From Chara braunii (Eukaryota > Plantae > Charophyceae), in NCBI GenBank assembly GCA_003427395.1, contig BFEA01000002.1:9527766-9578171 (forward strand): a stretch of 50,406 nt of DNA. Reading direction: 5' to 3'. The position numbers and the translations under genes were made by a program. The notes beneath the pieces are model-generated. The model searched no databases. It was not told the DNA's origin and was given only the letters and a program-made list of their open reading frames with translations. Below, piece by piece: positions 1 through 39,651 of this stretch (the first letter of the stretch is position 1; each line of letters starts with the position of its first letter).

Positions 1-3000
1 CTCTCTCTCTCTCTCTCTCTCTCGACTACTACCTCAGACTCAGTTAGCGACCGAGCGCTGCCGAAAAGGAACTCACACCTTCGGGCGCTGCTCGTCCGCC
101 TGTATTCCCCGCGTACGCCTCCCTTCAATGTTCTTCTCCTCGTCCTTTATACTCGCGGTCCCGGACGGATGCCACCCCCTTCGCCCCGCCTCGCAGCGCC
201 TCCCTTCTAGTTGATGCCAAAATTTCCCGACATTCAGACTTCCTGCTCAGCATACCCTCCTTCCTTTGTGATCTGCCTCCTTCGTCTTTTCGGCCACTCG
301 TCTTCCGCCTTCCCTTCCACATCGGAGTCGACTCCGCTCTTCTTTGATAATCGCCTTGTAGTATCCTTGACCGAAATTTTCCGAAATTTGAACTTCCCGC
401 TTAGCATCCCCTCCTTCCTTTGGGATCCACTCCCCTTTTGTCCTTTCGGCCATTCGTCTTCCCTTCTCTCTTTTGTGTGGGATTCGACTTTCTGGAGGCA
501 TCGCGTGTCGCCCGACAGTTATCATTAATCATACACGCTCTCTTTTTGATAACCGACTCGACCTGCCCCGCCTAGTATTTCTTCCACCCCACTTCGTCTT
601 ATCGGCCAATAGTCTTCCTTTTTCTCTTTCGTGAGGGATTCGACTTTCTGGAAGCATCACACGCCGCCCAATCAGTTATCACTAATCATACACGATAACT
701 GCCAACCAAAATTTCCCAAAATTCGAACTTTCCCGCTTAGTATTCCCTCCTTCTTTCGGGGACCCACCCCTTTTCATCTTATCGGCCAACCGTCTTCCCC
801 CCTCCCCTGTCGCTTTGAATTCGATTTTCTTGGGAGCAGCAGACCATTTTGACCTCGGCGCTGGGCGAATTAGTCGGTAGCTCTGTTTTACCCGACGGCT
901 ACACTCTCTCTCTAAGACAACTGTTTTGTAGAGCTGGAAGCTCAGCTCCGTCGAAGGCACCCCCTTTCTATCCTTTTCTCTCGGATTTCGTCGGTGCGAG
1001 TTCACGATCCGACCTCCTTTCTTTTACCACAGTCCTTCGGCCGTGCGCAACCACCCTTCGTCGTGCCAGGCCATAGTGTTACATGCCGCCCCTTGCAGTC
1101 CACCCCTCAAGGTGCCAAAAAAAAACTAAANTTTTGACTAAATTTCTAACTCCCGCCCCNGTCTTTTCTTCCNATGTCCCTTCTTCNCCCATCCCATCCA
1201 ATAGGATTCGCCCTTCCTCGCAGTGGCCGGATCGATCAGAGGTACGAGGCATACCCTTGATTCTGATCGCGCTCCCTTTCGTCCGTCCTTCCACCCAGCT
1301 TCCGGCTCCCTCCCTTCCGCAACTCTCCGCCCTGCTCCTTCCTTGGTAGTCTGAGAAAAGTTCCGAGGAGCGCGCGCCTTCCCTTATTCGGTTATCAAGA
1401 ATTTCCAGCTCCCGCTCGTTCACCCGAGTCGACGTTTTCTTGCTTCTNGCCTTGCAACNAACCGTGGCACACAGTCCCTTCCGTCTTTTCACCTTCCCTC
1501 CTTTTGTTCGTAACAGGCCGGCGGGACAGTGGACCCCCCCCCTCCCCGAGGATGANCCTTCAGTTCGGTCGACTCCCGGTCATTCAGGAAANGCAATCCC
1601 CCAGCTTGCAGATATTATTCCTCCCTCTCAGGTCGGTGCCCTATATAGATCCTCCCCCTTTTTCGTTCGTTGGATGACACGATCCGAGCAGCCCGCGACC
1701 AACTCGTCCTGCCAGGTCTCGTGGCGTGCCCCCCTTTTCCTCGTGCGAGCACCAGCTCCTTCCCATTCTTCCAGTCAGCGGCCTAGCCCAACCATTCCTT
1801 TTCCGCATCGGGCTTTCTCCTGCTCTCCCGACAATTTTTCTGAAATCGATCGCCACGGGGCATCCAAATCCTGTATCCAACTCTTCCGGTCGCGCAGTGC
1901 TAAGACCGATCCTTCCGCATCGGCGATCTTCATCTTGATTGGCTTATCTCCGGAGCTTGCGCGTCCCCGTTATCGGCCACCACCTTCCTGAGCCCTGTAC
2001 GGCCTCCTCTGTCTTCTTTTCTCCCTCCTTCTCGGTCTCACTTTGGCCCCACCTGATTAACACTGTCTTGCCTTGAGAAGCAGTCCCCTCTCTTCAATCT
2101 TCACGTGATCAAGCAGCTCCCCCTTCATTTTCATTTTCCTTCCTTCCCCTTTTGAGTTTGCGATGGCTATCTTACCAGCCGCGGGTCAACTTGGATCATG
2201 ATTGGCGCGGCATTGGTCCGATCACCAGCTACCGGCGCTTCGCCCGTACCTGTTCATTGCAGATTTCCAAAGGGAAATCGATCCGGCGCCCGCCACCGTC
2301 TAAGGACTTATCGCAGCCCTCGTTACGAACCCATCCTTGGTGCAACCGCGTTTCGGCCTCTTCTGCCCCTGAAAAGTCCTGCGACCAAGCCCGTGAGACC
2401 GGGTTTAATCCGTCCCCCTTTTTGGTCAAACCTGGATCTTCTCTCACTTCGTTATCCTGAGTTTTCCACGGCCTGCCTCAAGGTCAGCCATCAACCCTTG
2501 ATCCTTTACCCGAGGCACTAAAAACCTCAATCTCCTGGAATCCACCCGTTCAAATTCCCCCTTTTGTGCCTGTTTTCTCCCAAACCGGTCATCGTCACCA
2601 GCAGCCAGTTTCGAGCATCGCCTCGTGGCCGCTCCTTCGCATTGTCGCAGGAGACCTCTGGCGTGGTCGCTGCATCAGGATCGCGTCGGCCGTCGTGGCA
2701 TTTCTCCCCACCTCCCGGGACTGCAGACCGCGTTAGGCACGAGTAGACTCCGCTACGTACAACTGTGGTAGCCTGTTGGTTACTTCGAAACAGAGGTTCC
2801 TGTCCTTCACCAGCCGCCCATTTTCGATCTGATCTAGGCTCATCCCGATGCATATTGTCTGTCCCGCATTTTCAGTTTCCGATTCCGGGAAACTCCCGTT
2901 TTTCACGATCCGCCCGAGCCCGCTTAGGATCAAGTCGCCACCGCCACTCCAGGCAATCGGAGGGTTAGTATGAGGGCCCGAAAACCTGAGGACATCCAGA

Positions 3001-3116
3001 ATCATCATACCCACATGCATACATACGTCAAAACCATGCGAAAAACAGCAAAAAGAGAAATTATTTTTCATTTTAAATAAAGAAAAACCCTTCGGCTGGT
3101 GGGCAGCCTCCCGACA
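1..3116 (-). repeat. 3' LTR (partial; the window starts in its internal (CT)n tract)
   Basis: Near-identical to ~18700-21760. Begins TGTCGG on the minus strand just after the purine-rich tract downstream of integrase. Confidence 0.93.
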
Positions 3117-3436: not shown

Positions 3437-4273
3437 CTACGACCGTCTCCGTCTCCTTTTCCTCTTCTCGTGCCTTTCTCTCTTCCGTTTCCTTTCTTCT
3501 CTTTCCCGTTTGATTTTCAAGGCTTTCCTTGAGGCACTCCGCCTCTCCCTTAGCCGGCGCTTCCTTAACCGATCGTCATCACCTTCTTCTTCTCTAGGCC
3601 TTTTCTTCTTCCTAGGGGTCTTTGGTAGCGGAGGCTTCCGAACCTTATACCCTTTCCTGGTTGGGCGAGACGAGGCCCCTTGTCTGGAGGTCTCCCCCTC
3701 TTCATGAGTGATAGTCAGTTCTGTTTTTAGCACTTCCTTCCCTTTTAGTTTCAGCTCCTCCCCCAGGGTCCCCTTCGATCGGAAGATTTTAAGACGAGCC
3801 CCAGCGATAGGGTCCCGTAACCTACTCCCATCTAATTCAGCGAGCATATAAGCCCCCCCATCCAACCTCTTTAGGACCTTATACGGTCCCATCCACCGGT
3901 TCGCCAATTTCCGGCTCCAGGTCTTTTCTAGCGACGAATCGTACATCAGTACCATGTCATTAATCCCTATTGGCGCCTTTCGAACCCGCAGGTTTTTGTC
4001 CCACCTATCTTTCCCTTTCACCCTCTCTCTCTCGATGTTCTCACTGGCCGTGGCTACTCCGACATCCAAGTTCTCGGCTATCTGTTGTATCTGTGCTTCC
4101 AATAGCTCACCCCTAGACATGTTGGTTTTCCACGAGACACTTGTCCAAGTGTCAATGTGGAACTCAATGGGTAGGGGAAAATGCCTGCCGAACCAAAGGG
4201 TGTAAGGAGGGTACCCAGTACTCGATTTGACCGTGATGTTGTCCGCCCAAACCACGTATCGTAAATACTTGGG
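3437..4273 (-). pseudogene. pol: Integrase C-terminal part (GPY/F motif, long Arg/Lys-rich tail, no chromodomain)
   Basis: In frame with the upstream pol ORF across one TGA (4274-4276). Motifs STGYPPYTLWFG and LANRWMGPYKV...AYMLAELDG. Confidence 0.9.
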
Positions 4274-6830
4274 TCATTGTTCCTCGCGACCCTTGCACCA
4301 CTTTGCTAGGGCGTCCACAAGCGTCTGGTGCCCCCTTTCTACCAGCGCGTTGCTTTGGGGGTGATAAGCGGTTGTATAGGCCTCCCCGATCCCTGCCTTT
4401 TCTAACAACCCCTTCACCTTTTGGCTCAAGAATTCAGCTCCCTTATCTATGACTATTTTCCCGACACATCCATATCGCGCGATATACTCTAGGAGAAAAT
4501 CACTCACCTCCTCCACCGTCTTTTTCTTAATGGCCTTTGCTTCTACGAATCCGGTGAGGTCATCCCGGGCGTTGATTATATACCGAAGACCGCCGACCCC
4601 TTTTGGCATGGTCACCAAGTCGATATGGACCTTCTCGCCTGGGACCGTGGGAAGCGACGGAACTAAGGGTTCTTTGTATCGAACCGTCGCCCTTTTCTGA
4701 CAAGCTTCACAGGTAGAACAATACTTTTCCACTTCGGCGTATTGCCCGTCCCACCAATAAAGCCTGCGGACCTTATCGAAAGTGCCTTTAATCCCCTTGT
4801 GACCTCCAATGACCCCATCGTATAACTCTTCTATGACCGCCCTTCTCTCCTCCGGATCACACAGCACCCTCATGGGTATTGCAAATTTGGTGGGTCTTTT
4901 GAAGAGGTGGCCTCCCCGCAGGCAATATCCCAGCGCCTCTTGCTGGATCCTTTCAGTCCTTGTTTCCCTACCGGCCAAGTATAACCCTATGTCTCCGTAC
5001 TTTCCGTCGTAGAGATTTGCGAGAAAGGTCCTTGGCCCCCCTACTTCCCCTCGGCTGCCCCCAGCTATTTGCGCTCTATTTGCAGCGACTTTCATTATCG
5101 CCTCTTCGACCATTGCCTCTTCTTCCTTCTTAAGCCTAGGCATGTCCTCCTCTCGAATGGGAAGCCGAGACAATCCATCGGCGACCTGGTTTTTGGTCCC
5201 CGATATCCTCTCGACCCTATAGTCATAAAGGCTGATATGGATCATCCAGCGTGCGATGGTTGGATCCGTCAATGAGAAATCCTTTTGGAGGACCGCGGCC
5301 ACTGCCGTCAGGTCCACCGTTAGGAGAAATCGTCGTCCGTACAGGTAGTGACGGCAGGCTTTTAGGCAATGTAGTACCCCCAACACTTCCTTCTTGAATT
5401 GGCTATAATTTCTCTCTGCGGGGTTTAAGGTCCAACTTTCGAATCGCAACGGTCTCTCTCTCCCTTCCCCATCCTTTTGTGACAGGAGACCCCCTACTGA
5501 GTGAGGTCCAGCGTCCGTGGATACTATAAACGGACGACTCTCTTCGTCTTCAAAAAACGGGACTCCTAGGACTTCTCCACCTTCTTTGAACTCCCCCTTC
5601 AAGGCTTCCATGGCCGCTGTTTGTTCTTCTCCCCAAACCCATCCTTCCGATTTCCTGAGGAGTCTTCTAAGGGGTTCCGCCTTCTCTCCATAGGCTTTTA
5701 TGAAGATTCGCCAGTAGCCCACAACCCCTAGAAACTGTCGGACCTCCGTTATGGATTTGAGCGGTGAAGGCCAGGTCATCAACTTTACCAATTTCTCGGG
5801 ATCGGGCCTCCGCCCTTCCTTATCGCAAATGAACCCCAATATCTTGATGGAGGATACACCCCAACGACTCTTAGTCCCGCTTACCATGAGGTTGGCATCG
5901 TCTAGTTTCTCAAGGACGTCCCTCACATCTTGCATGTGGTCGGTCACAAACTTTCTAACCCAAGGGAAATCCTCGGTCTCATCCCTCTCGACCGGCCCTT
6001 TTATTGGGAAATCATCCAGGAAGACTTCCACCTTCTCCGGTATGAACTCCTTGAGGACCGCGATCATGGCCCTTTGGAACACGGCTACCCCATTGGTCCA
6101 ACCCATCGGTACCACCATCATTTGAACCAACCCTAAGGGTGTATGCATGGCGGTCATGTGCCTGTCCTGGTAATCTAAAGGAATCTCATCGTACCCTGAG
6201 AAGAGATCGCAAATAGAGTATATTGAGCGACCCGTTGACCCTTCCGCTAGCAAGTCGGCCTCCGGTATAGACCCCACGTCTCTTACGGTGACTGCATTGG
6301 TCGTCTGGAGGTTTTGGATCCATCTTAGTTTGTTGCTACCTCCCTTCCTTAGAAAGAACCACTTATTGGAGTAGGCACTCTCGCAAGGCTCCGCGACGAA
6401 TGTCCTGATCTTTCCCTTGATGAAGGTCACTATCTCTTCTTTCTCCTTTTGAGCATACTTCCATTAAGGCCTGTCCTTCCAAGGGACGTGCGAAATCGTG
6501 TGGATCCGGGCAGGCTTAGCATACCTTGGGTCGATTCTCCCTCTCTCCGAGTCGTTGAAGGCAATGGCCTTATCGCAGCCCCTTAAGGTCATTGCTATGA
6601 ACTCTTTTTCTTCCTCCATGAGATTCCTGTCTCCTATATCCATTTTGGCCAGTCTATCGACCGTTATCCTTCACCCTTCCATCTCTTTCCTCTTCCTGAT
6701 GATATCGGCTATCTCCTCTTCCGATATCGTAGCTTCCCCCATTCTATCCCGGCTGACCGCGGTGGGTTTCACTTTCTCCGCCACGGTTTTGTGCTTCTTA
6801 ATTCCGCCGGCTAGGGGGATCCCTCCAAAA
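4274..6830 (-). pseudogene. pol: Pol: reverse transcriptase, RNase H, integrase zinc finger and DDE core
   Basis: RT motifs DLFSGY, VPMGWTNG, FLDD. RNase H motifs TDAG and RNYSQFKKE. Integrase GHKG...CEAC, HIDL, IDKGAEF, SNALVERGH. The frame extends upstream of 6430 through two premature stops (KHKTVAEKVKP...). Confidence 0.95.
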
Positions 6831-8745
6831 AAGACAAACTGACGCACCCACCGAACTCTTCTTCCTCGCCCTCCTTCTCGTACCCCGTGCCGTTAATTAC
6901 TATCCTGTCCCCCACGTCTTCGATCTCCAATTGGTCCCCCTTGGGTCCTCTATCCATCAAGGGCACTTCCTCTAGACGGACTCGACACACCCTCGACTGG
7001 GCCCCCTTGCGCTTAGTAAGGTTGGTCCGGTTACATTCATCTTGCGCGTCCACGGTCTTTAGGACCACTCTGATTCCATCAGGACTTTGGATCGAGAGAG
7101 TTTGACTTTCATCCGGCAAATCAACCGTGGTTGCATGTACCGCGCTTAGCCAGGTCCTTCCGAGGATTAATTCGAAGGAACATTCTTTTACCGAAAAGAT
7201 CGGTACCGTGGCCCCCACACCAGCTACCTCAATTACGGGGCTATGACACACCCCTTCCGCCGGTTGCAGCTTGTTATCCACCATCACCATCGACATTAAC
7301 ACCCCTCGATCTATCTCCAGGCCTAGCTCTCGCGCGATGGAGTCCCTACATACCGTAGACTCGGACCCATTGTCCACTAAGGCCCTCATCTTTTTCCCAC
7401 TTACCACCGTCTGGAGCTGGCCGCTCCCTAGCACGTAGAACTTTTTGGCCTCTTCCCCCGAGAAGAAATTGGCCGGTAGCTCCTCCATGGTAATGCGGGT
7501 GGCCTGCACTTCTTCCTTGGTGGGACCTTCCACCAGCACCGTGGGCCCTACCGCGAGCGGGACTCTCACCTTCCTTGTGATGCTTAGGAGCTCCTCTCTG
7601 ACACTTTTGCTCGCGGCTAGATATTCTAAAAGGGTGCACTGCATGGGCTGCATCAGCGTCCGCCTAAGGGGTGCTATCGTGTCTATCTCATCCAGAGTGC
7701 ACTTCATTTCGAACTTTTTGGGCCCTCTTTTCTTAGGCGATTTTGGCGATGTGGGCTCCTCCTTTTTTTCCTCCACCGCCTTTGCGTCGGTCATCGACTG
7801 GTCATTGTCGCCGCTTTTTACTTCCGTACTTTCCGTCACGCTTGCTTGGTTTTCGGAAGTCTCTGTCCCAACTTGCGTCCTCACCCTTAGGCAGGGCCTC
7901 TCCTCTTCGGGCTGGGTATTCACGAACTTGATGCTCGATACTTGGGGCTCTCTAATGGACAATCCTCCCGGTGACTCCACCATTTGGATGTGAGCAGTGT
8001 TAGAGGAGCTTCCGGCTTCCGGCTTCTTACCGAGTCTAGCTTCCTGAAGGGTCACCCTCTTGTCCACGTTCACTTTCATCGATGGGTAAAAGGAGACTGC
8101 CTCGCCGCTACCCCCCCCCACAACCCACTTGTTTTCGTTAAGCTTGACCACTCCCAATCTCAAAGCCTCTGTGAGATAAGGGCAGTCCCTTTTGATGTGG
8201 TTTTCTTCGTTGCAGTAGACACACCCGGCCCGAGCTTGGGGATTGTTGGGACGCGGACCCCCTTGTGTTGTTGCCGCTATGGGCGCAGGCGGAACCGGTG
8301 GTGGTGGTGCCGGGGGTTGTGGCGCTCTAACCTCTGGTCGCGGCCCTTGGGCCCTAGCTTGAGGGGCCTTTCCCCACCTTCCATCCCTAACATCCTTCCA
8401 ATGGGAATTTCCCCAATCGGAACCACGATTCCCCCCTACTTCCCTGTCGTTCTTCCAACCTCCCTGGCCATTTAACTCGTTCCTCCATCCGGTAGGCCGG
8501 TCTCCCCACCGGGGACCAGGCGGAGCCGGTGGTGGTCTATCGCTCCCTCTAGGACCATCGCTCCGTGTCCCTCGCATGTGGCGGAGGGCCATGTCCAAGG
8601 TCTCTTTCATGTATTTTCTTACGTCCACCCCTCCCCCTGTGAAAACCACTTCAGCTACTTTCTCGAAATTTACAGAATCCCTCGGGGTCTTTTCAGGACC
8701 TCCTTCCTCTTCTCTTCGGGCAGATGCAGCATGAACATTACGCAC
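6811..8745 (-). CDS. Gag C-terminus (CCHC zinc knuckle) plus aspartic protease
   Basis: CVYCNEENHIKRDC knuckle. Retropepsin motifs ALVDNGSES and ILGRTWL. Confidence 0.9.
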   Translation of the reverse strand: MRNVHAASARREEEGGPEKTPRDSVNFEKVAEVVFTGGGVDVRKYMKETLDMALRHMRGTRSDGPRGSDRPPPAPPGPRWGDRPTGWRNELNGQGGWKNDREVGGNRGSDWGNSHWKDVRDGRWGKAPQARAQGPRPEVRAPQPPAPPPPVPPAPIAATTQGGPRPNNPQARAGCVYCNEENHIKRDCPYLTEALRLGVVKLNENKWVVGGGSGEAVSFYPSMKVNVDKRVTLQEARLGKKPEAGSSSNTAHIQMVESPGGLSIREPQVSSIKFVNTQPEEERPCLRVRTQVGTETSENQASVTESTEVKSGDNDQSMTDAKAVEEKKEEPTSPKSPKKRGPKKFEMKCTLDEIDTIAPLRRTLMQPMQCTLLEYLAASKSVREELLSITRKVRVPLAVGPTVLVEGPTKEEVQATRITMEELPANFFSGEEAKKFYVLGSGQLQTVVSGKKMRALVDNGSESTVCRDSIARELGLEIDRGVLMSMVMVDNKLQPAEGVCHSPVIEVAGVGATVPIFSVKECSFELILGRTWLSAVHATTVDLPDESQTLSIQSPDGIRVVLKTVDAQDECNRTNLTKRKGAQSRVCRVRLEEVPLMDRGPKGDQLEIEDVGDRIVINGTGYEKEGEEEEFGGCVSLSFLEGSP

Positions 8746-10195
8746 CTGTCTACCTCGGACAGCATGCCCCTATCCACTAGGGCTTGGGACAGACGCTTGA
8801 ACCTACGGGTAAAGGCTACCAAGCTCTCCCTTTCCCCCCTTGTAATACGTCTCAAGCCCTCCACGGTCGGGATCAGGTCATCACAGGCGAACGTCCGCAA
8901 CAAGCTCGCCCTGAAGGTCCTCCATCGTCCGTCTGAAGGGTAGATAGCTCGGATCGCGGTGTCTAGCTCAGGGTCTGAGTGCTGGATTAAATAATCGATC
9001 CACTCTCTCTCAGAGAACCTCTTGCGGTAAGCGTAGCTTTCCCATTTCTCCACGAACCCTGTCACATCTCGTCCATCGAAAAAAAGCGCCTCCAGACCCA
9101 AGTTGACGTCATAATAGGGCACCCGTCGGTCGTCATATCGACGAAAATAGGGACCTTCCATAGGCCCATCGGTTGCCGTATCGTACGGTTTGTACCACGA
9201 GGGATCGGGCTCCTCTACCCGGCCTCGAGGTCTTGATGGCTCCCAGGGGTGTTCCCCGTAGCGGCCCCGCTCATCCGGCCAATCTGCTTCCCACCGAGCG
9301 GGGTCCGGCCCTCTAAAACTCCGCTGGGTCTCCATCCCTTGACTCCTGCCCGTTATCTCACCAGGGGCCCAAGCCGCGTCTGCTTCTCTCACGGCCCATC
9401 TACGCGACCTTCTACCAGCCTCCGCCGGCCTTTCTTCTCTAAGACCCCTTCTACTTGGTCCCCCTTCCCCTTCTCTCTGGGGTGGTCGGTACCCCCTCCC
9501 ATCTCTTGGAAATCCTAGGGCTTCTCCCATTCTCGCGTTCGGTAAATCCCCCCACCGAGATTCTATAGGAAGGCCCCTCGAGCCCTCGGTTGCCCATCTC
9601 TTACTAGCATTCTCATTTCCACACCAGATCTCGGACCTAGCAAGCCCTGTCTTTCACTGGTGACGGCCTCCGGGACCCTTTCAACCCATCTCCTTCCCTC
9701 TCTCAAGTCCCTCTTGTCTTGACACTCCTCTTCTTCTCCCCTAAGTGGTCGATACCCTTGTCTATCCCTAGGGAATTCCCGTGTTCCCTCTAGCCTTGCT
9801 TCCGCATCCATTAGGTCTGCCCACCGGGACTCCACCGGAACGCCTCTCGCGGCTTCAGCTACCCCCTCGTTTACCGTCACCCGTGGCCCCACATCCCTGT
9901 GCACTCGCACCTCTGCGCCATCCCTTTGCCCCTCTGCGGCTTGTCTCTCTCCCGGAGCCATTTCCGGGACCCCTTCGGCCCTATCAAGCGTCTCTTTCCC
10001 CTCAGTTATTTCTTCCACTACCTTGCTTAGACTGGCCCCCAATTCGGGGCTCTTCACTGTCCCCCTTCATTCAGTGGCTTCCGGCGGACCAGGGAGACCA
10101 GCCCCCGCTTCACTCTCCATGCACCCTTATTCGCTACTTCTAGTCGCCTCCCTCGCTACCGTCCGTGTCACTACCCGGCTCGCCCTCCTCACCAT
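8670..10195 (-). pseudogene. gag: Gag N-terminal/capsid region (frameshifted, premature stops)
   Basis: Likely start MVRRASRVVTR at 10195, in frame with ORF 9563-10057. Frameshift near 9575 into 8670-9530, which has a retrotransposon-gag-like core (FDGRDVTGFVEKWE...W..FR...ESLVAFTRRF). Confidence 0.75.
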
Positions 10196-10931
10196 TGTCT
10201 CCGTTACTTCATGAGCTTTTTTCCTCCTCTGTTCCCTCCTCCTCCTCACTAGAATCCTCGTCTGCACCTTCTCCCTCCGACTCCTTACTGGTTACTGTCC
10301 ACCAAGAATCCCTGAGTTTCTTCTCCTTACTAGCAGCCAATGCAAGATTTGCGACCGCTAGGTCCGAGATGCTTCTAACCCCCTCTTGCGCACATCTCCT
10401 AATCAAATCCCTGTCCACATCTCCCGGCTGCCCGGAGAATAGAGGCTTGATGAACTCCCCAACGCGCGCCCACCACTCGAAATCGGTGTCAAAGCCTCTT
10501 CGTATTCGCTCGTCCTATCCCAAAACCGAGTTTCCACAAGGTGTGTCCTAGACGTCAGTGGCGCTCCTAGACACCTTGAGTCCTCCTCGAACTTTCTCTC
10601 TACTTCCAGCAAAGGCTCCCTCCAAGTCCTCGAGAATCTCACGCCACTCGCGTTTCCAATGCGGACCGAAAAGGTAGCTAGGGTGGTCCAGTTCCTTCTC
10701 TTCCACAAAGCCAGCCTTCGGACTTCCACTAGAAACTCCGTCTCGGCGCGGACTATCCGGTCCTCCCCCAATTCCGGGTTAAGCTCGACACTCCCCTCGA
10801 TCCTAACCTCGCGACCGTCCTCGTAGGTCTCTAATTCCCAACGAATCCTATTGGAGACGAACGTGGCTCTCATCCCCTCACCCCGAGAGAATGTCTATTG
10901 TGACCCCGTCGAGGATAGCGATTGTGGCCAT
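10140..10931 (-). pseudogene. Accessory ORF C5, unknown function (disrupted; acidic C-terminus)
   Basis: Fragments 10403-10873 and 10209-10418 can be joined by frameshifts. REVRIEGSVELNPE weakly resembles the family-C motif. Confidence 0.4.
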
Positions 10932-11042
10932 CTCTAGCAGCTTGACCCTGGCTAAGGACCCGGGCCTAACTCTCCTTCTTTCCAACACAGAGCAAGGATC
11001 CGCTGAACTTCTTCCCTCACTCTATCCAACCCCACAAGCTCC

Positions 11043-11801
11043 TCAAGGTCCGGCTCGGTCATCCCCTAACCTCCGTCGACGACAGGCAATAGCTACCCGA
11101 ATCAAGTCAGAGGTGTCCAACCCCGCTAGCTCCCCTTCACAAATCTTACCTATGTATCTCCACGATATCTTAGATTCTCTCGCGTGTCGACCCCACCCCT
11201 CAAAAGCGTAACCCAGGTCCTCTAGAGTCGACCAATCGTCTCTACAGGGGTCCCGAAAACACCAAGTTAGCAAGGTGTGTAGGTCTGATCCCGTGAACCT
11301 GAACTGACTTAGGATGGAAACCCTTCTTCCCACCACCTTCTTAACAGCCTCGGAGGGGTAAACCCGTTCAAAAATGAATCGGGGGACCTCCGCAGGCTCG
11401 CTGGAGAGGAACCGCGGTATTTCTTCCCAACCCCCGTAGGTCACTAGATATGCCTCTTCGCACCCTTCGTGAGGTCCCAACCCCTCCACTAACTCCCCTA
11501 GTCGGCCCCTTACGGCTTGAGCGTCCCAGAGAGGGTCCTGCCCAGTCCGTAAGCTACGCGCTATCTCAACAAAGCCTTCCTTCGAGAGGAATATCCTGGC
11601 TTCTCCAACCACGACCTGCCCCTGGCGACTCACCACGAAGCGTACGAACGCCTTCCCTCGTCGGGTCCCCCCCTCCTCTCGTAGGAGAGTCCTAGCTGGC
11701 TCGGCCAGCCGGGCCCTAGGCAGAGTGATTCTAATAACCTCCCCGGTATCCTCTACGGGCTCTATGGTCGCCCAGAGAGTCCTCGGAACCCTCCTTATCA
11801 T
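11043..11801 (-). CDS. Accessory ORF C4, unknown function
   Basis: 252-aa ORF. Its ATG overlaps the upstream TGA (ATGA, 11798-11801). Shares IFLSKE.F/WVE and EE.PR...P.F with C1. Confidence 0.65.
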   Translation of the reverse strand: MIRRVPRTLWATIEPVEDTGEVIRITLPRARLAEPARTLLREEGGTRRGKAFVRFVVSRQGQVVVGEARIFLSKEGFVEIARSLRTGQDPLWDAQAVRGRLGELVEGLGPHEGCEEAYLVTYGGWEEIPRFLSSEPAEVPRFIFERVYPSEAVKKVVGRRVSILSQFRFTGSDLHTLLTWCFRDPCRDDWSTLEDLGYAFEGWGRHARESKISWRYIGKICEGELAGLDTSDLIRVAIACRRRRLGDDRAGP

Positions 11802-12510
11802 CGGCCCTCAAAACCCCTCCGGTTTGCCACCTGCTCCTCTCCGAAGAAGCGAGCGTACGGAACGTCCGCGACGAGGGATCGGAGTCCCTCAAACTCCCTC
11901 AATCTTCCAAATATGGTGGATAACTTACTCCTTGGGGGAATTCCCACGTCCACGCACTGAGTATAAAGCCAAAACAAACCCCTAGCCCGCACCCCGGATT
12001 CTCGAGCAGCCCTAAGCACCGCCACTACTCTCTCTTCCGGGTCCCTTAGGAACGAACTGGCCAAGGACTGGGGCAAGTTAGCGTGAAGGACCCCGGAAGT
12101 GCGAGGGACCTCTCCGGGCTCGACGAAGGAAACTAGGGACCACGACTCGAAAGTCCCCTCCTCGTAATCTGTTAACACCAGGTTGTTTGCCAACAGCCTG
12201 GCGGACTCTCGGTACTCAAAGTGCGTAAGCCGTCCGGTCACTAAACCTCTCCAGACCTCAGTTCACCTCTCTTCGTAAAAAAAAATGGTTGCTCGGATCT
12301 CTAGGAAGCGACCGATGTCGGGTGGGCCTCCTCTCTCCACACCTTCTTTCCAAGTGAGCCTTCATTGGCCCCTTCTCTGATTAATCCCCCCTTCTCAGCA
12401 CTCATCCAATAAGGAGTCACCTGAGGGTCTCCTGGGATCAAGACCTTCTTGGGATCGCCGGCCTCTATCGATTCTACCACCCCTTCTTCACTGAGGACGA
12501 ACTTCACCAT
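11798..12510 (-). pseudogene. Accessory ORF C3, unknown function (one frameshift plus TGA at 12263-12265)
   Basis: The rebuilt GRFLEIRATIFF...LFWLYTQCVDVGIPPRSKLSTIFGRL aligns with C2 GRSLEVTAIIFI...LWILYTHYIDQGIPPRRKLWGIFRRL. Confidence 0.65.
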
Positions 12511-13174
12511 CGACTTTCGTCGCCCTAAAGACCCACCTGTGATAATCTTCCGGAGAGAGAGTGTAGGTCTTCTCTAAAGAACCCAGTCTACGGAAAATAC
12601 CCCAGAGTTTCCTGCGCGGCGGAATACCTTGATCGATGTAGTGTGTATAAAGTATCCACAGGGACCAGAATGTAAGACCCAAACCCCTACCCCTCTCTAG
12701 AAGACACACTATTTTTTCCTCGTCTGCCCTAGGCAACAGGTAGGATGGCACCCTCAGAGTTAAGGGGTATCTTGATTTTGGGAGTTCACCTTCCTTCGCG
12801 AACCTTTCCCTTTCCACGGACACGAACGCAAATCGCTTTCTAACCCTATTTACCCATTCTCCTCTCACCTCTCTTGCCTTCCGCAATAATTTTTCCAACC
12901 CACCCCCTTGTCCCAGAACTAGGGGTACTACAAGCTTTGCCCAAGCCTTCGGTGCTATGAAAATAATCGCGGTTACTTCAAGGCTTCGTCCAATACCTTG
13001 GCCTTCTAGTTCTTTGGACTTTATCCACACAAATTCCCCACTGACTGTGAACCTCCCTTCTTCTACCCTTTCCCAATCCGACAGTTTCTTGTTGCTAGGG
13101 ATCAGCCTAAGGGTCTCACGGTCTTCTAATGGGGACTCAAAGAAGCATCCATGCTTTCCATCATGGAACACCAT
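12488..13174 (-). CDS. Accessory ORF C2, unknown function
   Basis: Intact 228-aa ATG ORF overlapping its neighbours. Clear paralog of C3. Confidence 0.7.
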   Translation of the reverse strand: MVFHDGKHGCFFESPLEDRETLRLIPSNKKLSDWERVEEGRFTVSGEFVWIKSKELEGQGIGRSLEVTAIIFIAPKAWAKLVVPLVLGQGGGLEKLLRKAREVRGEWVNRVRKRFAFVSVERERFAKEGELPKSRYPLTLRVPSYLLPRADEEKIVCLLERGRGLGLTFWSLWILYTHYIDQGIPPRRKLWGIFRRLGSLEKTYTLSPEDYHRWVFRATKVDGEVRPQ

Positions 13175-13923
13175 TCATTTAGAAGGATCCTTTGCGGCAC
13201 TCCGAAGACCCTTTGGTATCCGTAGTCCCTTCCTCCCTCGCGGTCCCGGGTGGACTCCCTAAAGATCCCGGCACGAATCCTACAAGCCCTGATCCCGTAC
13301 GGCACCGGGTTTTCCACGCAATAGGTGTAGTACCAATGGAGTGACCTAACGGAGAGTTGCCACCCCTTTTCCCGCACTATGGACCGTACTATCATGTCGT
13401 ATCGTTCCTCCTCCCCGCTCACCCTTCGTAAAACAAATGATGGGAATATGGCCCTGACGCACCCTGTGGCACGGGGATATTCTTCGTCTCCCGCGCAGGT
13501 CACCCTCACCTCAATGGGTGGGCTATGCCTAAGGGATTCAGCCTCAAAGACCTGTCTCAAAATCGGACCTACCCGTGCCGCCCAATGATCCGCACGGTAC
13601 CACCCCAGGGCCAAATGAGTGACGTACTCGACCCAAGCTTCCTTACTCAAGTAGACTGTTCCTTCCGCACGGATCACTGTTCGCCTGGGTCTCTTCCCGT
13701 TCTGGGGCCTGTTCCGGGACCACCTGTCCCCCTCCCAAGTTCCCACTGCGAAACGAGCCCAGAGAAAAACCCCTCTCTCTAGCTCTACCCCCCTCTAACG
13801 ACCGGCTAGATACCGCTCTGTGCGGTGGTCTAAAGGGACGCTGAAGCACTCTCGGTCTTTGCTTATATCAGCTTTCTCAATCCGAACCCCTTCTTCTTCA
13901 GTACCTTCTATGATTCTAACCAT
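13126..13923 (-). pseudogene. Accessory ORF C1, unknown function (one in-frame TAG at 13795-13797)
   Basis: ATG at 13923 is in frame with 13126-13746. Motifs VYLSKEAWVE, EEYPRATG and LHWYYTYCVE match C2-C4. Confidence 0.65.
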
Positions 13924-14315
13924 CCCCTAGGACTATCTCCTCTATGATTTGAACTAGCGCTCTCCAGGAAGGCGTTCGGAATAGTGGGGACTGGCCTACC
14001 CCCTCGCGGATACGTCTGACACCCCAACGAGTAGAAATAGTTAATTTCGTAAGCCCCTAGCAGTTGCTTCTCAAGCTGCGCGTGACCGATCGCCTCCTCC
14101 TAGCTATCCAAATACCCCGCTGCTCTATCTACTCCCTCTTCCACGTACAAGGCTATGTCGAAGTGCCCGGTCCACCAGTAGAAGGTATAGCACCAAACAT
14201 CTACTCCGCCTATGTCACCCACACTAATCCCCGCGGGCTCAAACTCCAAAGGCCTCAAGCTCATGGATCCGCCGCTCTCACCATATGCTTCACTATCCCT
14301 ACCCGTACTTTTCAT
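13908..14315 (-). pseudogene. Accessory ORF B2, unknown function (in-frame TAG at 14100-14102)
   Basis: Reading through the TAG gives EEAIG...YFYSLGCQTYPRGGRP, collinear with B1. Confidence 0.7.
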
Positions 14316-14620
14316 CCATCCGACCCATCAAGATAAGCGTCTGGAATTACCGGCGCCGGGCGACCACCTCTCGGGTAGGTACGATATCCTAGAGAATAGA
14401 AATACTTGAATCCGTAACTCCTTAACTCCCCCCGCGAACAGCGGGAGTCGCCTATCGCCTCTTCCCACCCTCGAAGGAAGTTCTCCCCTTGATCTTGCCC
14501 CTCCTCTACATAAACACCTACATCAAAGTCCCCAGTCCATAGTCTAAAGGAGTAGCACCACACATCAACACTTCCGTGGGTACACACACTAATCCATTCG
14601 GGAGTGGCTTCTAGGCTCAT
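14312..14620 (-). CDS. Accessory ORF B1, unknown function (102 aa)
   Basis: Intact ORF with ATGA overlaps at both ends. Paralog of B2 (VDVWCY.F..WTG.FD...YVEEG). Confidence 0.7.
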   Translation of the reverse strand: MSLEATPEWISVCTHGSVDVWCYSFRLWTGDFDVGVYVEEGQDQGENFLRGWEEAIGDSRCSRGELRSYGFKYFYSLGYRTYPRGGRPAPVIPDAYLDGSDG

Positions 14621-15192
14621 ACAGTATAATCAAAGAAAACTTCCCTAAATTCTCACTTTCTATTGGCCACTCGAGAGACCACCTCTATCCCGCGAGGAAG
14701 AGAAGCCTGTGAGCTCAGAAGGATCAAATGGACCAGAGAAGGAACGTCGTCTCACTCGGCTACCTTCCTGTCCTCCCCCGCTGAGAGACTCCTCCCCACT
14801 CCCGGCCTAGAGACTAGCCGTGGACACAGGTTATCCACGAGGAAGGGTGGCAACCCCCTCCCTGGAGTCGGACCGAAGTCACACACCCGCACCCTACGTC
14901 CCCCACTGAACTGACCTCTTAGCCTATCCGGTACCACGCCTCTACTCGGCCCACCTCAGGCGTGGAATTACCCGGGTCCCAGGACAAGATCCACCTATGT
15001 ATCGGAAATCTCTAGCCTATCTATTCCCTCTCCTTTCTCCTCATCGTGAACCCTTCGCACTTCGTTCTCTTCTCCCTTTTTCGCCTCCTGCTGCCTCTTT
15101 TCTCTATTGGAATCACTGGAAAATCGGAAAAATCGAAAAAAGGGTGGGAAGAGCGGAGCTTTTAGGAAGAGGCTCTCAGGTGGGGTTGACAA
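14617..15192 (-). pseudogene. Accessory ORF A2 (several in-frame stops)
   Basis: ORF pieces 14995-15192 and 14752-14937 share one frame, which ends at the TGA overlapping the B1 ATG. Confidence 0.35.
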
Positions 15193-15267
15193 GCATACAT
15201 ACCTTGGGTCTTCAATACTCGTTATCGTAGTCCCAATAATCCCCCAGTTCTGAGTCCGAGAAATCGG

Positions 15268-15573
15268 CTAGACACCGGTCCACCAAGGAGCCGGCCTCCG
15301 ATCCCTCGCCCAAGGTCCCCCAAGTATCCCACTCTTCTTGAATGTCCTCACTATGAAGGTCAGGTATCTCCCTCTCTCCCCTTTGCTTCGGTACCCGTAG
15401 CACCACTCTCCTTTCCCCCAAGCCCCAAACCGGTCCCGATTGAGAGTCCCGCTCCCTCGTGGGAGTTGCAACCGTCGTCAGCCCCTGTGGATCGAGAATC
15501 GAAACCCCTAACCCCTCTCTAGACANGCTGGGACAACTACACAGGAAACGCACGGGTGAACCTTGATTGCCAT
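15268..15573 (-). pseudogene. Accessory ORF A1, first ORF after the PBS (two in-frame stops)
   Basis: ATG at 15573 (MAIKVHPCVSC...) is in frame with 15268-15471. Confidence 0.3.
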
Positions 15574-15615
15574 CCCCTTATCAGGCTGAAAGTCACGTGA
15601 GGGTGACAGGGTGGC

Positions 15616-15633: not shown

Positions 15634-16709
15634 ATATGTGAGTGAAGCCCTCTTTCTTGCTGATTTTGCTCATCTCAAAACCTCCTCCCGCACGTAGACC
15701 GCCAACCTCCTCTCTCATACTAATCCCACATTCGCCACATGGAACGCGCACGCCGGATTCTCTAACGATTTACCCATCAGAAAAGCAGTAACGTGACAGG
15801 CCAGAGCACGCATGCAAACTCTTCCCCACTTCTTCTCTCCACACGGCAGCATGAATAAAGCTTTCGCTGATAGTCGAGCATATTGCCGCATTAACCAAAT
15901 TTCCTGAGAAGAAATAGGAGACCATTCTCACTTGACAGCCCACTAGCCTTTTCGTCACGGACTGAAGACTCGTGGCTTGCCCGCCGGTCATGTCTTTCAA
16001 GAACGCTTTCCCTTCTCCCACTGCCTAATCACTTGTGCGTCTCGGTCAATACTCCTTTCCTCCCACACAAACGTGTTACGCATGGGCTGAGTACTCGAAC
16101 CACAACACCATACCCTGTTAGCTCCCAGGCTACCTCCCTGACAAGAGCGTGATAAGCTCGCAAGCCGATCTCGTGCATAGCCCGTTGTGTTGACGTCAAC
16201 TTTCTTCACACATATTGACCCCTCGATCGCCTTTGTCCGTCTCAGCCCCTTTTGCTAACTTCATTCGCCTTCGACTGTGCCACGCGTACGTCTGTAACTG
16301 CTTCGTAGCTCGCACCCCGTTTTCCAGAATGACCACCCTCCGGCCTCTCTCGCTTTCCCCGTCACGCCACCTGTCGCGCCTGAGCTTATTCCACTCTCCT
16401 TACATGTCTCTCAGAACCGCCCGTGTTGACTCTCTCTCTCTCTCTCTGGGACCCAGCCTCACACACGTTTCTTCCCTTTGCTCTATTTCTCTCCGGCCCC
16501 TCGGCCTCAGGGCGTCAACTGCCGTGAATTGGCTTCAGGTCCCTCCTCCACCGGCTTTGCAGCCCGGTGTCAGCCGGACCGTCCGTACTGAACCCCTCCC
16601 CTGTCGTTTCTCACCCCCCCCTCCTCTTGCTTTGAAGGGCCCTCTACTCGCCGTGGGCACCGAACCCAGAGCGTAGTCACATGTCGTGTGCAACTACAGA
16701 ACTCGACGG

Positions 16710-17440
16710 AAAGGAAGGACCCTGTACGGGCGTTCGAATGATCTTAAAGAAAACAAGTACCCCGCACTTCGTTACTTATTAAATACGGTCTCATAACTCA
16801 AGAGGAACCAAGAACTCAGAACTTCGAGCCAGGTCGATTGCTAAATGCGGTTTCAGATTTCAGTGAGAAACAAGGACAACAGTTTTAGAACTCAAAGGGA
16901 AAGAAGGACTTCGTCCGAGCGTTCGAACGACCTTAAAGAAACAAGTACTCCGAACTTCGTACTTCGTCACTTATTGAGTACGGTCTCAGCACTCAAGAGG
17001 AACCAAGAACTCAAAACTTCGAGCTAGGTCAATTGCTAAAAGCAGTTTCAGATTTCAGTGAGAAACAAGGATAGCAATTTCATAACTCAAAGGGAAAGAA
17101 GGACTCCGTCCGAATGTTCGAGTGACCTTAAAGAAAACAAGTACTTCGCACTTCGTCACTTCGTCACTTATTGAATACGGTCTCAGAACTCAAAACTTCG
17201 AGTCAGGTCGTTGGCTAAATGCGGTTACAGATTTTGGTGAGAAACAAGGATAACTGTTTCAGAACTTCAAAGGGAAAGAAGGACTCGGTCCCTCACTGAA
17301 TACGGTTTAAGAACTCGAGAGGGAACAAGGGTTCCAAACTTCGAAGTTGGTCACTAACTGAGTGCGGTAACGGAGCTCAAAAGGAAACGAGGACCGCATT
17401 TTCAGAACTCAAAAGTGAAGAAGGACTCGGAACTCATAAC
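16710..17440. repeat. ~190-bp tandem repeat (about 3.5 copies) inside the LTR
   Basis: Recurring CTTAAAGAAAACAAGTAC...TGAGAAACAAGGA...CAAAGGGAAAGAAGGACT units. Confidence 0.85.

Positions 17441-18635: not shown

Positions 18636-18639
<4 letters not shown>

Positions 18640-18724
<85 letters not shown>
18640..18724. repeat. (CT)n microsatellite inside the LTR
   Basis: Read directly; equivalent to 1-22. Confidence 0.95.
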
Positions 18725-18727
<3 letters not shown>

Positions 18728-20329
18728 GACTACTACCCCGGACTCGGACTAGCGACCGAGCGCTGCCGAAAAGGAACTCACACCTTCGGGCGCTGCTCGT
18801 TCGCCTTTATTCCCCGCGTACGCCTCCCTTCTATGCTCTTCACCTCGGTCCCAGACGGATGCCACCCCCTTCGCCCCGCCTTGCAGCGCCTCCCTTCTAG
18901 TTGATGCCAAAATTTTCCGACATTCAGACTTCCCACTCAGCATTCCCTCCTTCCTTTGTGATCCGCCTCCTTCGTCTTTTCGGCCAATCGTCTTCCGCCT
19001 TCCCTTTCGCATCGGATTCGACTCCGCTCTTCTTTGATAATCGCCTCGTAGTATCCTTGACCGAAATTTCCCGAAATTTGAACTTCCCGCTTAGCATCCC
19101 CTCCTTCCTTTGGGATCCACTCCCCTTTTGTCCTTTTGGCCATTCGTCTTCCCTTCTCTCTTTTGTGTGGGATTCGACTTTCAGGAGGCATCGCGCGTCG
19201 CCCGACAGTTATCATTAATCATACACGCTCTCTTTTTGATAACCGACTCGACCTGCCCCGCCTAGTATTTCTTCCACCCCACTTCATCTTATCGGCCAAT
19301 AGTCTTCCTTTTCTCTTTCATGAGGGATTCGACTTTCTGGAAGCATCACACGCCGCCCAATCAGTTATCACTAATCATACACGATAACTGTCAACCAAAA
19401 TTTCCCAAAATTCAAACTTTCCCGCTTAGTATTCCCTCCTTCTTTCGGGGACCCACCCCTTTTCATCTTATCGGCCAACCGTCTTCCCCCCTCCCCTGTC
19501 GCTTTGAATTCGATTTTCTTGGGAGCAGCAGACCATTTTGACCTCGGCGCTGGGCGANTTAGTCGGTAGCTNTGTTTTACCCGACGGCTACACTCTCTCT
19601 CTAAGACAACTGTTTTGTAGAGCTGGAAGCTCAGCTCCGTCGAAGGCACCCCCTTTCTATCCTTTTCTCTCGGATTTCGTCGGTGCGAGTTCACGATCCG
19701 ACCTCCTTCCTTTTACCGCAGTCCTCCGGCCGTGCGCAACCAGCCTTCGTCGTGCCAGGCCGTAGTGTTACATGTCGCCCCTTGCAGTCCACCCCTCAAG
19801 GTGCCAAAAAAAAACTAAATTTTTGACTAAATTTCTAACTCCCGCCCCCGTCTTTTCTTCCAATGTCCCTTCTTCACCCATCCCATCCAATAGGATTCGC
19901 CCTTCCTCGCAGTGGCCGGATCGATCAGAGGTACGAGGCATACCCTTGATTCTGATCGCGCTCCCTTTCGTCCGTCCTTCCACCCAGCTCCCGGCTGCCT
20001 CCCTTCCGCAACTCTCCGCCCTGCTCCTTCCTTGGTAGTCTGAAAGAAGTTCTGAGGAGCGCGCGCCTTCCCTTATTCGGTTATCAAGAATTTCCAGCTT
20101 CCGCTCGTTCGCCCGAGTCGACGTTTTCTTGCTTCTCGCCTTGCAACCAACCGTGGCACACAGTCCCTTCCGTCTTTTCACCTTCCCTCCTTTTGTTCGT
20201 AACAGACCGGCGGGACAGTGGACCCCCCCCCTCCCCGAGGATGATCCTTCAGTTCGGTCGACTCCCGGTCATTCAGGAAACGCAATCCCCCAGCTTGCAG
20301 ATATTATTCCTCCCTCTCAGGTCGGTGCC

Positions 20330-20338
20330 CTATATAGA
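20330..20338 (-). promoter_or_regulatory. Candidate TATA box of the LTR promoter
   Basis: TCTATATAG in a GC-rich context, conserved in the other LTR (~1641-1649). Confidence 0.3.
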
Positions 20339-21760
20339 TCCTCCCCCTTTTTCGTTCGTTGGATGACACGATCCGAGCAGCCCGCGCCCAACTCGTCCTG
20401 CCAGGTCTCGTGGCGCGCCCCCCTTTTCCTCATGCGAGCACCAGCTCTTTCCCATTCTTCCGGTCAGTGGCCTAGCCCAACCATTCCTTTTCCGCAGCGG
20501 GCTTTCTCCTGCTCTCCCGACAATTTTTCTGAAATCGATCGCCACGGGGCATCCAGATCCTGTGTCCGACTCTTCCGGTCGCACAGTGCTAAGACCGATC
20601 CTTCCGCATCGGCGACCTTCATCGTGATTGGCTTATCTTTGGAGCTTGCGCGTCCCCGTTATCGGCCACCACCTTCCCGAGCCCTGTACGGCCTCCTCTG
20701 TCTTATTTTCTCCCTCCTTCTCGGTCTCACTTTGGCCACACCTGATTAACATTGTCCTGCCTTGAGAAGCAGTCCCCTCTCTTCAATCGTCACATGATCA
20801 AGCAGCTCCCCCTTCGTTTTCATTTTCCTTCCTTCCCCTTTCGAGTTTGCGATGGCTATCTTACCAGCCGCGGGTGAACTTGGATTATGATTCGCGCGGC
20901 ATTGGTCCGATCACCAGCGAAATCGATCCGGCGCCCGCCACCATCCAAGGACTTATCGCAGCCCTCGTTACGAACCCATCCTTGGTGCAACCGCGTTTCG
21001 GCCTCTTCTGCCCCTGAAAAGTCCTGCGACCGATCCCGTGAGACAGGGTTTAATCCGGCCCCCTTTTTGGTCAAACCTGGATCTTCTCTCGCTTCGTTAT
21101 CCGGAGTTTTCCACGGCCTGCCTCAAGGTCAGCCATCAACCCGTGATCCTTTACCCAAGGTACTGAAAACCTCGATCTCCTGGAATCCGCCCGTTCATAT
21201 TCCCCCTTTTGTGCCCGTTTTCTCCCGAACCGGTCATCGCCACCAACAGCTAGTTTCGAGCATCGCCTCGTGGCCGCTCCTTCGCATTGTCGTCGGAGAC
21301 CTCTGGCACGGTCACTGCATCAAGATTGCGTCGACCGTTGTGGCATTTCTCCCCACCTCCCGGGACTGCAGACCGCGTTAGGCACGAGTAGACTCCGCTA
21401 CGTACAACTGTGGTAGCCCGTTGTTACTTCGAAACAGAGGTTCCGGTCCTTCACTGGCCGCCCGTTTTCGATCTGATCTAGGCCCATCCCGATGCACATT
21501 GTCTGTCCCGCATTTTCAGTTTCCGATTCCGAAAAACTCCCGTTTTTCACGATCCGCCCGAGCCCGCTTAGGATCAAGTCGCCACCGCCACTCCAGGCAA
21601 TCGGAGGGTTAGTATGAGGGCCCGAAAACCCGAGGACATCCAAAATCATCATACCCACATGCATACATACGTCAAAACCATGCGAAAAACAAAAAAAAGA
21701 GAAATTATTTTTCATTTTAAATAAAGAAAAACCCTTCGGCTGGTGGGCAGCCGTCCGACA

Positions 21761-39625: not shown

Positions 39626-39651
<26 letters not shown>
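39557..39651. repeat. (CTA)n microsatellite
   Basis: Read directly. Confidence 0.95.

Follow-up and report, generated by a model that had tools for sequence, protein, structure and literature searches.

Plant LTR elements usually carry one or two extra open reading frames (ORFs), whose function is unknown (PMC7264820, PMC6317226); in 57% of Ogre elements, the 5' extra ORF encodes a plant mobile domain (PMC6317226). Gag-pol is produced in LTR elements by frameshifting, leaky scanning being assigned to pararetroviruses (PMC5902531, in part), and the features of leaky scanning are few internal AUGs and nonoptimal starts (PMC5902531 and PMC11892635, both in part). Accessory proteins of transposable elements, for their part, show higher dN/dS values and more predicted host contacts (excerpts of PMC13547354).

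The window, i.e., the whole stretch of Chara braunii DNA analyzed (50,406 nucleotides), contains a minus-strand Gypsy element with seven supported ORFs ahead of gag, which are mostly tandem paralogs. The Chara genome paper reportedly describes Chara-specific Gypsy repeats. Our literature search yielded no publication that deals with additional ORFs in Chara Gypsy elements; it did not cover the genome paper or the supplements to it, where these ORFs may be mentioned.

Organization of the element and of the upstream cassette

The element belongs to the Ty3/gypsy LTR retrotransposons, with gag followed by protease, RT, RNase H, and integrase in the Gypsy order (Pfam scan) and with two direct LTRs (Table 1). 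The LTRs were 95.6% identical over 2,230 nt and 94.6% identical over 846 nt, and TGTCGG was the minus-strand beginning of both; their length is not measurable because the 3' LTR is cut off by the window. The primer-binding site that bounds the cassette in the original prediction is putative, as the inner end of the LTR is undefined and none of the 13 CA..TGG sites found could be paired with a tRNA. ARAGORN gave no matches, and Rfam gave none in positions 3000 to 22000. We take the RT motifs to be reminiscent of fungal Ylt1-like elements.

Table 1. Features of the Gypsy element, in positions of the window
Feature	Positions	Strand	Description	Evidence
ORF A1	14312..14620	-	102 aa, open, acidic; paralog of A2	ORF calling and alignment
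ORF A2	13908..14264	-	One internal stop at 14100-14102; start set by parallel with A1	54% aa identity to A1 over 97 codons
ORF B1	13126..13923	-	265 codons, one internal stop at 13795-13797; nearest to family II	Family-II-only profile, E 2.7e-11
ORF B2	12488..13174	-	228 aa, open, zero internal Met	66-71% identity to P0001-P0003
ORF B3	11798..12510	-	Two breaks in window copy	16-nt gap at 12366/12367 relative to L001; stop at 12263-12265
ORF B4	11043..11801	-	252 aa, open; start overlaps B3 stop	ORF calling
ORF C	10403..10873	-	156 aa in window copy, open; unrelated to A and B	80% identity to P0002 over 119 aa
AUG-poor stretch	14650..15573	-	Common to sister copies, without supported ORF	Longest stop-free run 121 codons, no AUG start
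5' LTR	18705..21760	-	Portion matching the other LTR	LTR-LTR alignment; inner end undefined
3' LTR	1..3116	-	Truncated by window start	LTR-LTR alignment
Repeat array	16697..17419	.	~195-bp units, LTR/leader region	2.6 copies, 84%; 4 copies of 92-nt core (repeat family D18)
gag	6811..10066	-	Duplicated N-terminal unit, zinc knuckle, protease; split into three ORFs in window copy	Pfam, ORF and protein comparison
pol	3437..6892	-	RT, RNase H, integrase; interrupted by stops	Pfam

Stop-free minus-strand stretches of at least 100 codons covered 71% of positions 10140 to 15573, compared with 16% in Markov shuffles, none of which reached 71% (0 of 200); with a threshold of at least 150 codons, the coverage was 55%, compared with 3% in the shuffles. 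The original prediction of about nine unknown ORFs was thus correct as to dense, co-oriented frames, but seven are supported, all within 10403 to 14620, and they fall into three unrelated families, A (two paralogs), B (four paralogs of ∼230 to 265 aa), and C (one ORF). Nor do supported ORFs fill the whole region to its gag-distal end, as had been proposed. The stretch from 14650 to 15573 matched neither the fetched Chara proteins nor the B profile, and its sister coverage dropped upstream of ∼15525 to 15620. This stretch, C, and A were considered as extra B paralogs and ruled out by profile and alignment comparisons; C showed no similarity to B. A sister gene model of C runs on into an acidic stretch at 10263 to 10412, which lies in a different frame in the window, with 86% identity over 50 aa downstream. 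The ORFs had been described as intact or carrying one lesion, and this applied to all of them except B3. The tandem paralogy of most of the cassette had not been spotted, nor had its avoidance of AUG.

In agreement with the original prediction, no recognized domain was found in the cassette, since Pfam gave no match near the cutoff for the 12 stretches scanned in 10212 to 15577 (best E, 0.027). The absence of a transmembrane-rich Env was likewise corroborated by maximal 19-residue hydropathy values of 0.4 to 1.0, a single stretch in B2 being borderline (1.87).

Selection, relatives, and divergence

The comparison of B2 with the sister locus L001 gave a dN/dS of 0.17 to 0.25, with 22, 15, and 52 differences at codon positions 1, 2, and 3, respectively, and that of B3 gave 0.18 to 0.35, values that come from a single pair of copies (window and L001) and from two of the seven ORFs. 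The wrong frames of the B2 and B3 comparison yielded 0.8 to 1.6. Similarly, the A1 and A2 paralogs showed a pN/pS of 0.37 (0.27 to 0.51), compared with 0.95 and 1.05 in the shifted frames. L001 was also broken, at a place other than in the window copy (B3). Among the near-fixed differences from sister contigs located inside ORFs, 16 of 18 were protein changing, a count that carries little weight because it comes from just the 40 best-supported of 1,536 sites, picked by support. Summed read depth over the cassette was similar to that over gag in all four runs (one sample).

B2 and B3 thus evolve under purifying selection, and we hold this with very high confidence jointly with the layout, the paralogy, the many sister copies, the B array of a second family, the abutting ORFs, and the AUG avoidance. 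The proposal of an accessory cassette kept at the protein level is sustained by dN/dS values well below 1 in one pair of copies, by the A1/A2 ratio, by the gag-like coverage in sister copies, which also speaks against a nested insertion, and by the presence of the array in a second, distant family. No match to a described extra-ORF family was found, as far as Pfam, PHROGs, PDB, BFVD, and the literature search reach.

Homologs of B were found by sequence searches solely in C. braunii gene models, and this absence outside Chara is weak evidence because each of the two profile searches by word index was limited to scoring ∼8,000 candidates; the database-wide searches covered B, not families A and C. 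B occurred in 32 C. braunii gene models; it preceded every gag/pol part in 27 of them and was present as two or more domains in 8. Another, distantly related Gypsy family (family II), whose gag is ∼27% and whose pol is ∼48 to 51% identical to those of family I, likewise bears a tandem array of B genes ahead of gag, and the B domain of family II was linked to that of family I by hhalign (96.8%; E, 2.5e-10). Identity between B paralog types ranged from 12 to 33%, and an alignment of 21 B sequences contained no invariant column, only Gly and Pro being nearly invariant, which argues against an enzyme. Within family I, B was 66 to 71% identical compared with 84% for gag, and in family II the median identities were 73% for B, 84% for gag, and 82% for RT-RH; judged by these identities, B diverges faster than gag. 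Such faster divergence equally fits relaxed constraint.

A whole-library HMMER search with a four-sequence profile returned five matches. A repeat protein from ENA (P0004) was dropped as a B relative, as its match covers only a 17-position stretch. No B2 relatives were found near the length of B2, and the ESM Atlas feature search gave no usable match for B2 or for a family II domain. Three pattern matches were obtained in viral contigs, none of them confirmed; one of six proteins matched PHROGs (E, 0.004), in a family without known function; the best E value of C and A1 against PDB sequences was 0.08; and exact look-up matched none of the nine window proteins. The label "virus-like" in the original prediction consequently holds for the gene layout but not for descent, no viral relative having been found.

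The AlphaFold model of a family II B domain (pLDDT, 73.6; pTM, 0.70) predicted an alpha/beta N-domain followed by a helical C-domain; the model of B2 from the window (four sequences) was of low confidence (pLDDT, 40). With the family II model, Foldseek retrieved nothing from PDB or BFVD with an E value of 0.001 or lower, and the ESM Atlas structure search, made from a poor Atlas model, gave TM values of at most 0.33. The top structural matches were to chimallin, a shell protein of phages, in the region of its N-domain (Z, 5.5; rmsd, 4.2 to 4.3; 93 to 105 positions aligned), with a Z below the 7 to 8 typically reached by unmatched models. A MAIN-like fold was not among the listed matches (the helical C-domain was not searched on its own), nor was the DNA-binding protein KorA, to which B had a weak, nonsignificant sequence match (E, 0.04). 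The B fold is likely new.

ORF junctions and AUG avoidance

The stop and start codons are fused at B3/B4 and at A1 and an upstream in-frame AUG of A2 (14315), and the ORFs overlap at A2/B1, B1/B2, and B2/B3; B4 and C are separated by a 173-nt gap containing AUGs. Internal Met codons were found in 7 of 1,353 codons of the cassette ORFs, compared with 34 of 1,512 in gag-pol (P, 1e-4). In the region from 13923 to 10406, AUG was the most underrepresented of the 64 triplets (17 versus 35 expected), and it was not depleted in gag-pol (95 versus 85 expected) or in the LTR. Out-of-frame AUGs in the cassette numbered 14 versus 22.9 expected (19 of 2,000 shuffles), and B4 has 739 nt without AUG in any frame. 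L001 contained 6 AUGs versus 11.8 expected, only 2 of them common with the window over 1,237 nt. This AUG test was made post hoc, after the low Met content had been noticed. The optimal start context, a purine at -3 plus G at +4, was missing at six of the seven starts, the exception being B1, and the start AUG of B3 was missing from L001 (one of two copies). The family II B domains are Met rich (4.1%), and therefore the B domain as such does not entail an avoidance of AUG.

The abutting ORFs and the avoided sense-strand AUGs resemble the pattern of leaky scanning or reinitiation known from badnaviruses, a pattern that family II does not share. The optimal context of B1, the seven out-of-frame AUGs held by A1, the 31 AUGs in the 3 kb upstream of the cassette, and the B4/C gap make simple scanning from the 5' end unlikely; cassette translation would call for shunting, for splicing, or for an internal start. 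Polycistronic translation from one RNA in family I is moderately probable. Of each of three RNA runs, 6 to 13% was read, and two of the runs had next to no reads on the cassette. The third gave 780 of 16.7 million reads over 13.5 kb, with an even spread over gag-pol and cassette and with 733 reads less than 95% identical, a pattern that does not establish transcription, as DNA carry-over would give the same.

Possible roles and comparison with known systems

The best explanation as a whole, which we put forward tentatively, is a seven-gene array, with B2 and B3 under purifying selection, expressed from one RNA and with a role in counter-defense. The tandem array of accessory genes (two A, four B, and one C), carried ahead of gag by a Chara Gypsy family, would be translated through leaky scanning and stop-start reinitiation, and its soluble products would bind host factors and thereby blunt silencing or defense. 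Such host binding, with duplication and fast divergence of B giving differing specificities, is suggested by analogy and is a possible rather than a probable role. It is doubtful that the Chara Gypsy lineage evolved a virus-style polycistronic operon of up to seven proteins in full, with leaky scanning over ∼4 kb, a new amplified fold, and a counter-defense or shell system aiding element expansion.

Other roles would accommodate part of the data. The B paralogs might be structural, forming hetero-oligomers at a ratio fixed by one RNA, in a particle layer or a replication compartment shielding the long element RNA. Tandem paralogs of constant size in two families, a cotranslated layout, and chimallin as top structural match are consistent with this role, but the Z value is below that of unmatched models, the B types are highly dissimilar and evolve faster than Gag, and a normal gag is already present, so that we consider it rather unlikely. 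Binding to the DNA or RNA of the element itself, e.g., to the 195-bp array, for integration targeting, transcription activation, or packaging chaperoning, agrees with the basic character of B1, B2, and B4 (pI 8.7 to 9.8), with the repeat array upstream, with the weak KorA match, and with the binding of VANC proteins to noncoding regions of their own elements (PMC10398659, in part). It is unlikely given the neutral B3, the acidic A1, and the lack of significance of the KorA match.

Movement of particles between cells, via plasmodesmata or into the germ line, in the manner of movement proteins or of MDG1 sORF2, has a precedent in MDG1 elements, where an ORF located before gag serves cell-to-cell transfer (10.1101/2025.03.14.642691, in part), and the layout resembles that of plant pararetroviruses; yet sORF2 has ∼70 aa and a transmembrane helix, no ORF here starts with Met-Gly, and apart from the borderline B2 stretch there is no clear transmembrane segment, which makes movement improbable. 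Finally, a captured or nested piece, or chance open frames no longer under selection, could be invoked in view of the breaks in both the window copy and L001, the scarce RNA reads with possible DNA carry-over in the third run, and the purine-rich strands that favor long frames. Against it stand the low dN/dS in the correct frame only, the different positions of the breaks in the two copies, the gag-like coverage, the array in a second family, and the low ORF cover of shuffles of equal composition; this reading is largely refuted, and we regard it as highly improbable.

A selected seven-gene array with paralog expansion, in two distant families, shows that an accessory module of several genes can be part of a retrotransposon. 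B2 and B4, being open in the window copy, are expressible unaltered and offer a likely new fold for structure solving.

Like the Chara element, the Ogre/Tat/Athila Ty3/gypsy elements are giant, with LTRs of at least 3 kb, tandem repeats, and sense extra coding capacity (PMC6317226, PMC6431247, PMC7264820). Ogre differs in that its extra ORFs number one or two and frequently encode a plant mobile domain, and in that it has an additional RNase H. In the cassette, Pfam gave no match to the plant mobile domain, even with E values of up to 1 admitted; a further RNase H was not matched in the 123 aa that separate RNase H from integrase, the ORF that follows the integrase core lying outside the Pfam scan. 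The env-like ORF of Athila and SIRE is located between pol and the 3' LTR and has transmembrane segments, whereas the Chara cassette is 5' of gag and not transmembrane rich. Planarian Burro is similarly giant, but it encodes a huge polyprotein of recognizable domains and has no paralog array (PMC6431247). Accessory ORFs upstream of gag are shared with the MDG1 group, whose sORF1 and sORF2 are short and form no paralog array, one of them being a transmembrane fusogen with an N-myristoyl motif (10.1101/2025.03.14.642691, in part), in contrast to the 102 to 265 aa of the cassette ORFs. As a functional analogy for the cassette proteins, we favor the VANC anti-silencing proteins of VANDAL elements, which, like B, are fast-evolving accessory proteins of a plant transposon; VANDAL is a DNA transposon and VANC is related to MAIN, with no sequence or fold link to B found (PMC5735166, PMC10398659, and PMC13547354).

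With regard to translation, green-algal bicistronic genes resemble the cassette in that the context of their upstream start is weak and AUGs are depleted ahead of the downstream ORF, but they are chlorophyte host genes with two ORFs, unlike this element-borne array in a streptophyte (excerpts of PMC11892635). The integrase and LTRs place the element outside the Caulimoviridae, and no protein common to badnaviruses or tungroviruses and the cassette was found. The pregenomic RNA of these viruses nevertheless shares with it abutting or overlapping ORFs before the capsid-RT polyprotein, few internal AUGs, and mostly nonoptimal starts. The viruses are episomal and have two such ORFs (I and II) over ∼900 scanned nt, compared with five to seven over ∼3.5 to 4.2 kb in an element with integrase and LTRs (PMC5902531, in part); their upstream ORFs are devoid of internal AUGs, while the cassette is strongly depleted of them but not to zero. 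Since leaky scanning has been described for pararetroviruses, AUG avoidance over 3.5 kb would extend this strategy to an LTR element.

Organization of the cassette and its sister copies

The element lies on the minus strand and carries gag, protease, reverse transcriptase, RNase H and integrase, arranged as in Gypsy elements; a primer-binding site was looked for in the sequence and none was placed. The original prediction had described about nine unknown ORFs filling the region ahead of gag. The dense filling was borne out, since minus-strand stop-free stretches of at least 100 codons covered 71% of the region, compared with 16% in shuffled sequences (0 of 200 reached the observed value). The count was lowered to seven supported ORFs (A1, A2, B1 to B4 and C), the first ~900 nt of the region, its upstream end on the minus strand, containing no supportable ORF. 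In an all-against-all comparison, A1 and A2 were 54% identical and B1 to B4 shared 26 to 38% identity across 85 to 127 amino acids, whereas no relationship was found between C and B or between A and B. The paralogy within A and B was visible in protein comparison but invisible at the DNA level.

Coordinates of features in the window
Feature	Position	Strand	Observation
LTR matches	1-3116; 18705-21760	-	95.6% and 94.6%
Repeated units within both LTRs	217-800; 18907-19513		Units of ~155 bp
Integrase frame	3440-3760	-	Long Lys/Arg-rich tail at its end
gag N-terminus, tandem duplication	9566-10066; 9000-9653	-	48% amino acid identity, 75 codons, pN/pS 0.35; both units continue into gag in gene models P0002 and P0003
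ORF-filled region	10140-15573	-	Seven supported ORFs
B1/B2 junction	13185-13186		~40-50% of the sister depth, taking two adjacent rows together, has a 1-nt length difference
Divergent upstream part	15525-16680		Many sister contigs diverge from ~15525; depth down ~tenfold or more
Integrase-like frame	43823-44383	-	187 codons, resembling the end of another Gypsy integrase (judged by eye)
MITE-like short inverted-repeat elements	30621-30728; 39650-39753; 48004-48122; 50005-50402

The possibility that the region is a nested insertion was also considered. Four DNA runs of one sample all showed the cassette at a summed contig depth (~800 to 4900 in X1) similar to that of gag (~1500 to 1800), a measure distinct from copy number; none of the listed contig pieces spans the region. 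P0002, a Chara braunii gene model of the window's type, contains B2, C and gag arranged as they are in the window. Thus, the cassette belongs to the element family and is no nested insert. Summed sister depth dropped to 65 to 230 upstream of 15620, and subfamilies seem to have the cassette in common and to differ in the leader or LTR. The length difference at the B1/B2 junction makes that overlap variable among copies.

Selection and relatives of the B family

Copy-to-copy DNA tests covered B2 and B3 in one pair of copies, the window and the sister locus L001 (87.6% identity, 1237 nt). B2 differed at codon positions 1, 2 and 3 in 22, 15 and 52 cases, with a dN/dS of 0.17 (0.11 to 0.28), or 0.25 (0.16 to 0.38) when transition weighted. 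B3 gave 0.18 to 0.35 and the wrong frames 0.8 to 1.6, in agreement with the proposal that the ORFs are maintained as proteins. For the A1/A2 paralogs, pN/pS was 0.37, with saturated synonymous sites, and ~1 in shifted frames. B3 is broken at different positions in the two copies, as expected from decay after insertion.

All credible protein relatives of the cassette from profile searches were C. braunii gene models, which suggests this alga or a near relative as the host; 32 such models contain B (the ENA repeat protein P0004 excluded). Three belong to the window's family and 29 to a second type, most of the latter in one distant Gypsy family (family II) whose gag and protease are ~27%, and pol ~48 to 51%, identical to the window's. 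B lies upstream of every gag/pol part in 27 models, two deviate and three have no core part; two or three B domains occur in eight, and P0033 is a stand-alone B model of 226 amino acids. The B-gag fusions may be gene-prediction joins. Family II holds at least four B paralog types (~20 to 33% identical). Its profile, searched against 1288 six-frame segments, matched window B1 (E 2.7e-11) and B2 (E 1e-3); B4 was matched only at E 0.13 and B3 was missed altogether. An hhalign comparison of family II with the window family's B gave 96.8%. In P0001, another C. braunii gene model, a B2-like domain is fused to a DUF659 protein, probably because gene prediction joined an insertion to it.

Translation signature and expression

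An AUG in the A2 frame overlaps the stop of A1, the pairs A2/B1, B1/B2 and B2/B3 overlap, the B3 stop is fused to the B4 start, and 173 nt separate B4 from C. Across A1 to C, sense AUG was depleted (29 observed versus 46 expected; 1 of 300 shuffles), whereas antisense AUG was not (34 versus 28.5). AUG ranked lowest of the 64 triplets over B1 to C and 54th in gag-pol. Internal methionines numbered 7 in 1353 codons of the full cassette ORFs, and 2 in 1097 once A2, both ends of B1 and the head of B3 are set aside, compared with 34 in 1512 in gag-pol; P0002 was likewise poor in methionine (1/293 versus 17/696). Against a reading by leaky scanning stand the methionine-rich family II (4.1%), the optimal B1 start context, the many AUGs in A1 and the leader, and the lack of the B3 start AUG in L001. 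Most likely, RNA would be entered near A or B1 and then read by a mixture of scanning and reinitiation.

Two of three poly(A) RNA runs held next to no cassette reads. The third gave thin, flat cover across the whole internal region, mostly from diverged reads, with the same upstream drop as in DNA. These data neither show nor exclude cassette expression.

Possible function and comparison with known elements

A family-II B domain was modelled from a 21-sequence alignment containing no invariant columns. The predicted structure (pLDDT 73.6, pTM 0.70) combines a beta-rich alpha/beta domain (~18-152) with a helical domain. Foldseek returned nothing at E 0.001, and the top match of a wide structure search, chimallin (Z 5.5), was within background; B might be a new fold.

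Host-binding accessory proteins would fit the cassette products best, since these appear soluble, without catalytic invariants, repeatedly duplicated and diverging faster than gag (cf. PMC13547354). Counter-defence may tentatively be proposed as their role. A structural shell would be unlikely, nucleic acid binding a still weaker candidate, and a function in movement improbable.

The element is Gypsy and, judged by the features tested, lies outside Ogre/Tat and is neither env-like nor sORF2-like. Gypsy elements are already known to carry extra ORFs: PMC6317226 counts 314 groups, limited to ORFs of at least 250 codons, a limit by which most cassette ORFs would escape that survey. No selected multi-paralog array with AUG avoidance appeared among the papers listed by our literature searches. 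The cassette is real and, while extra ORFs as such are known, it is built here on an undescribed protein family.
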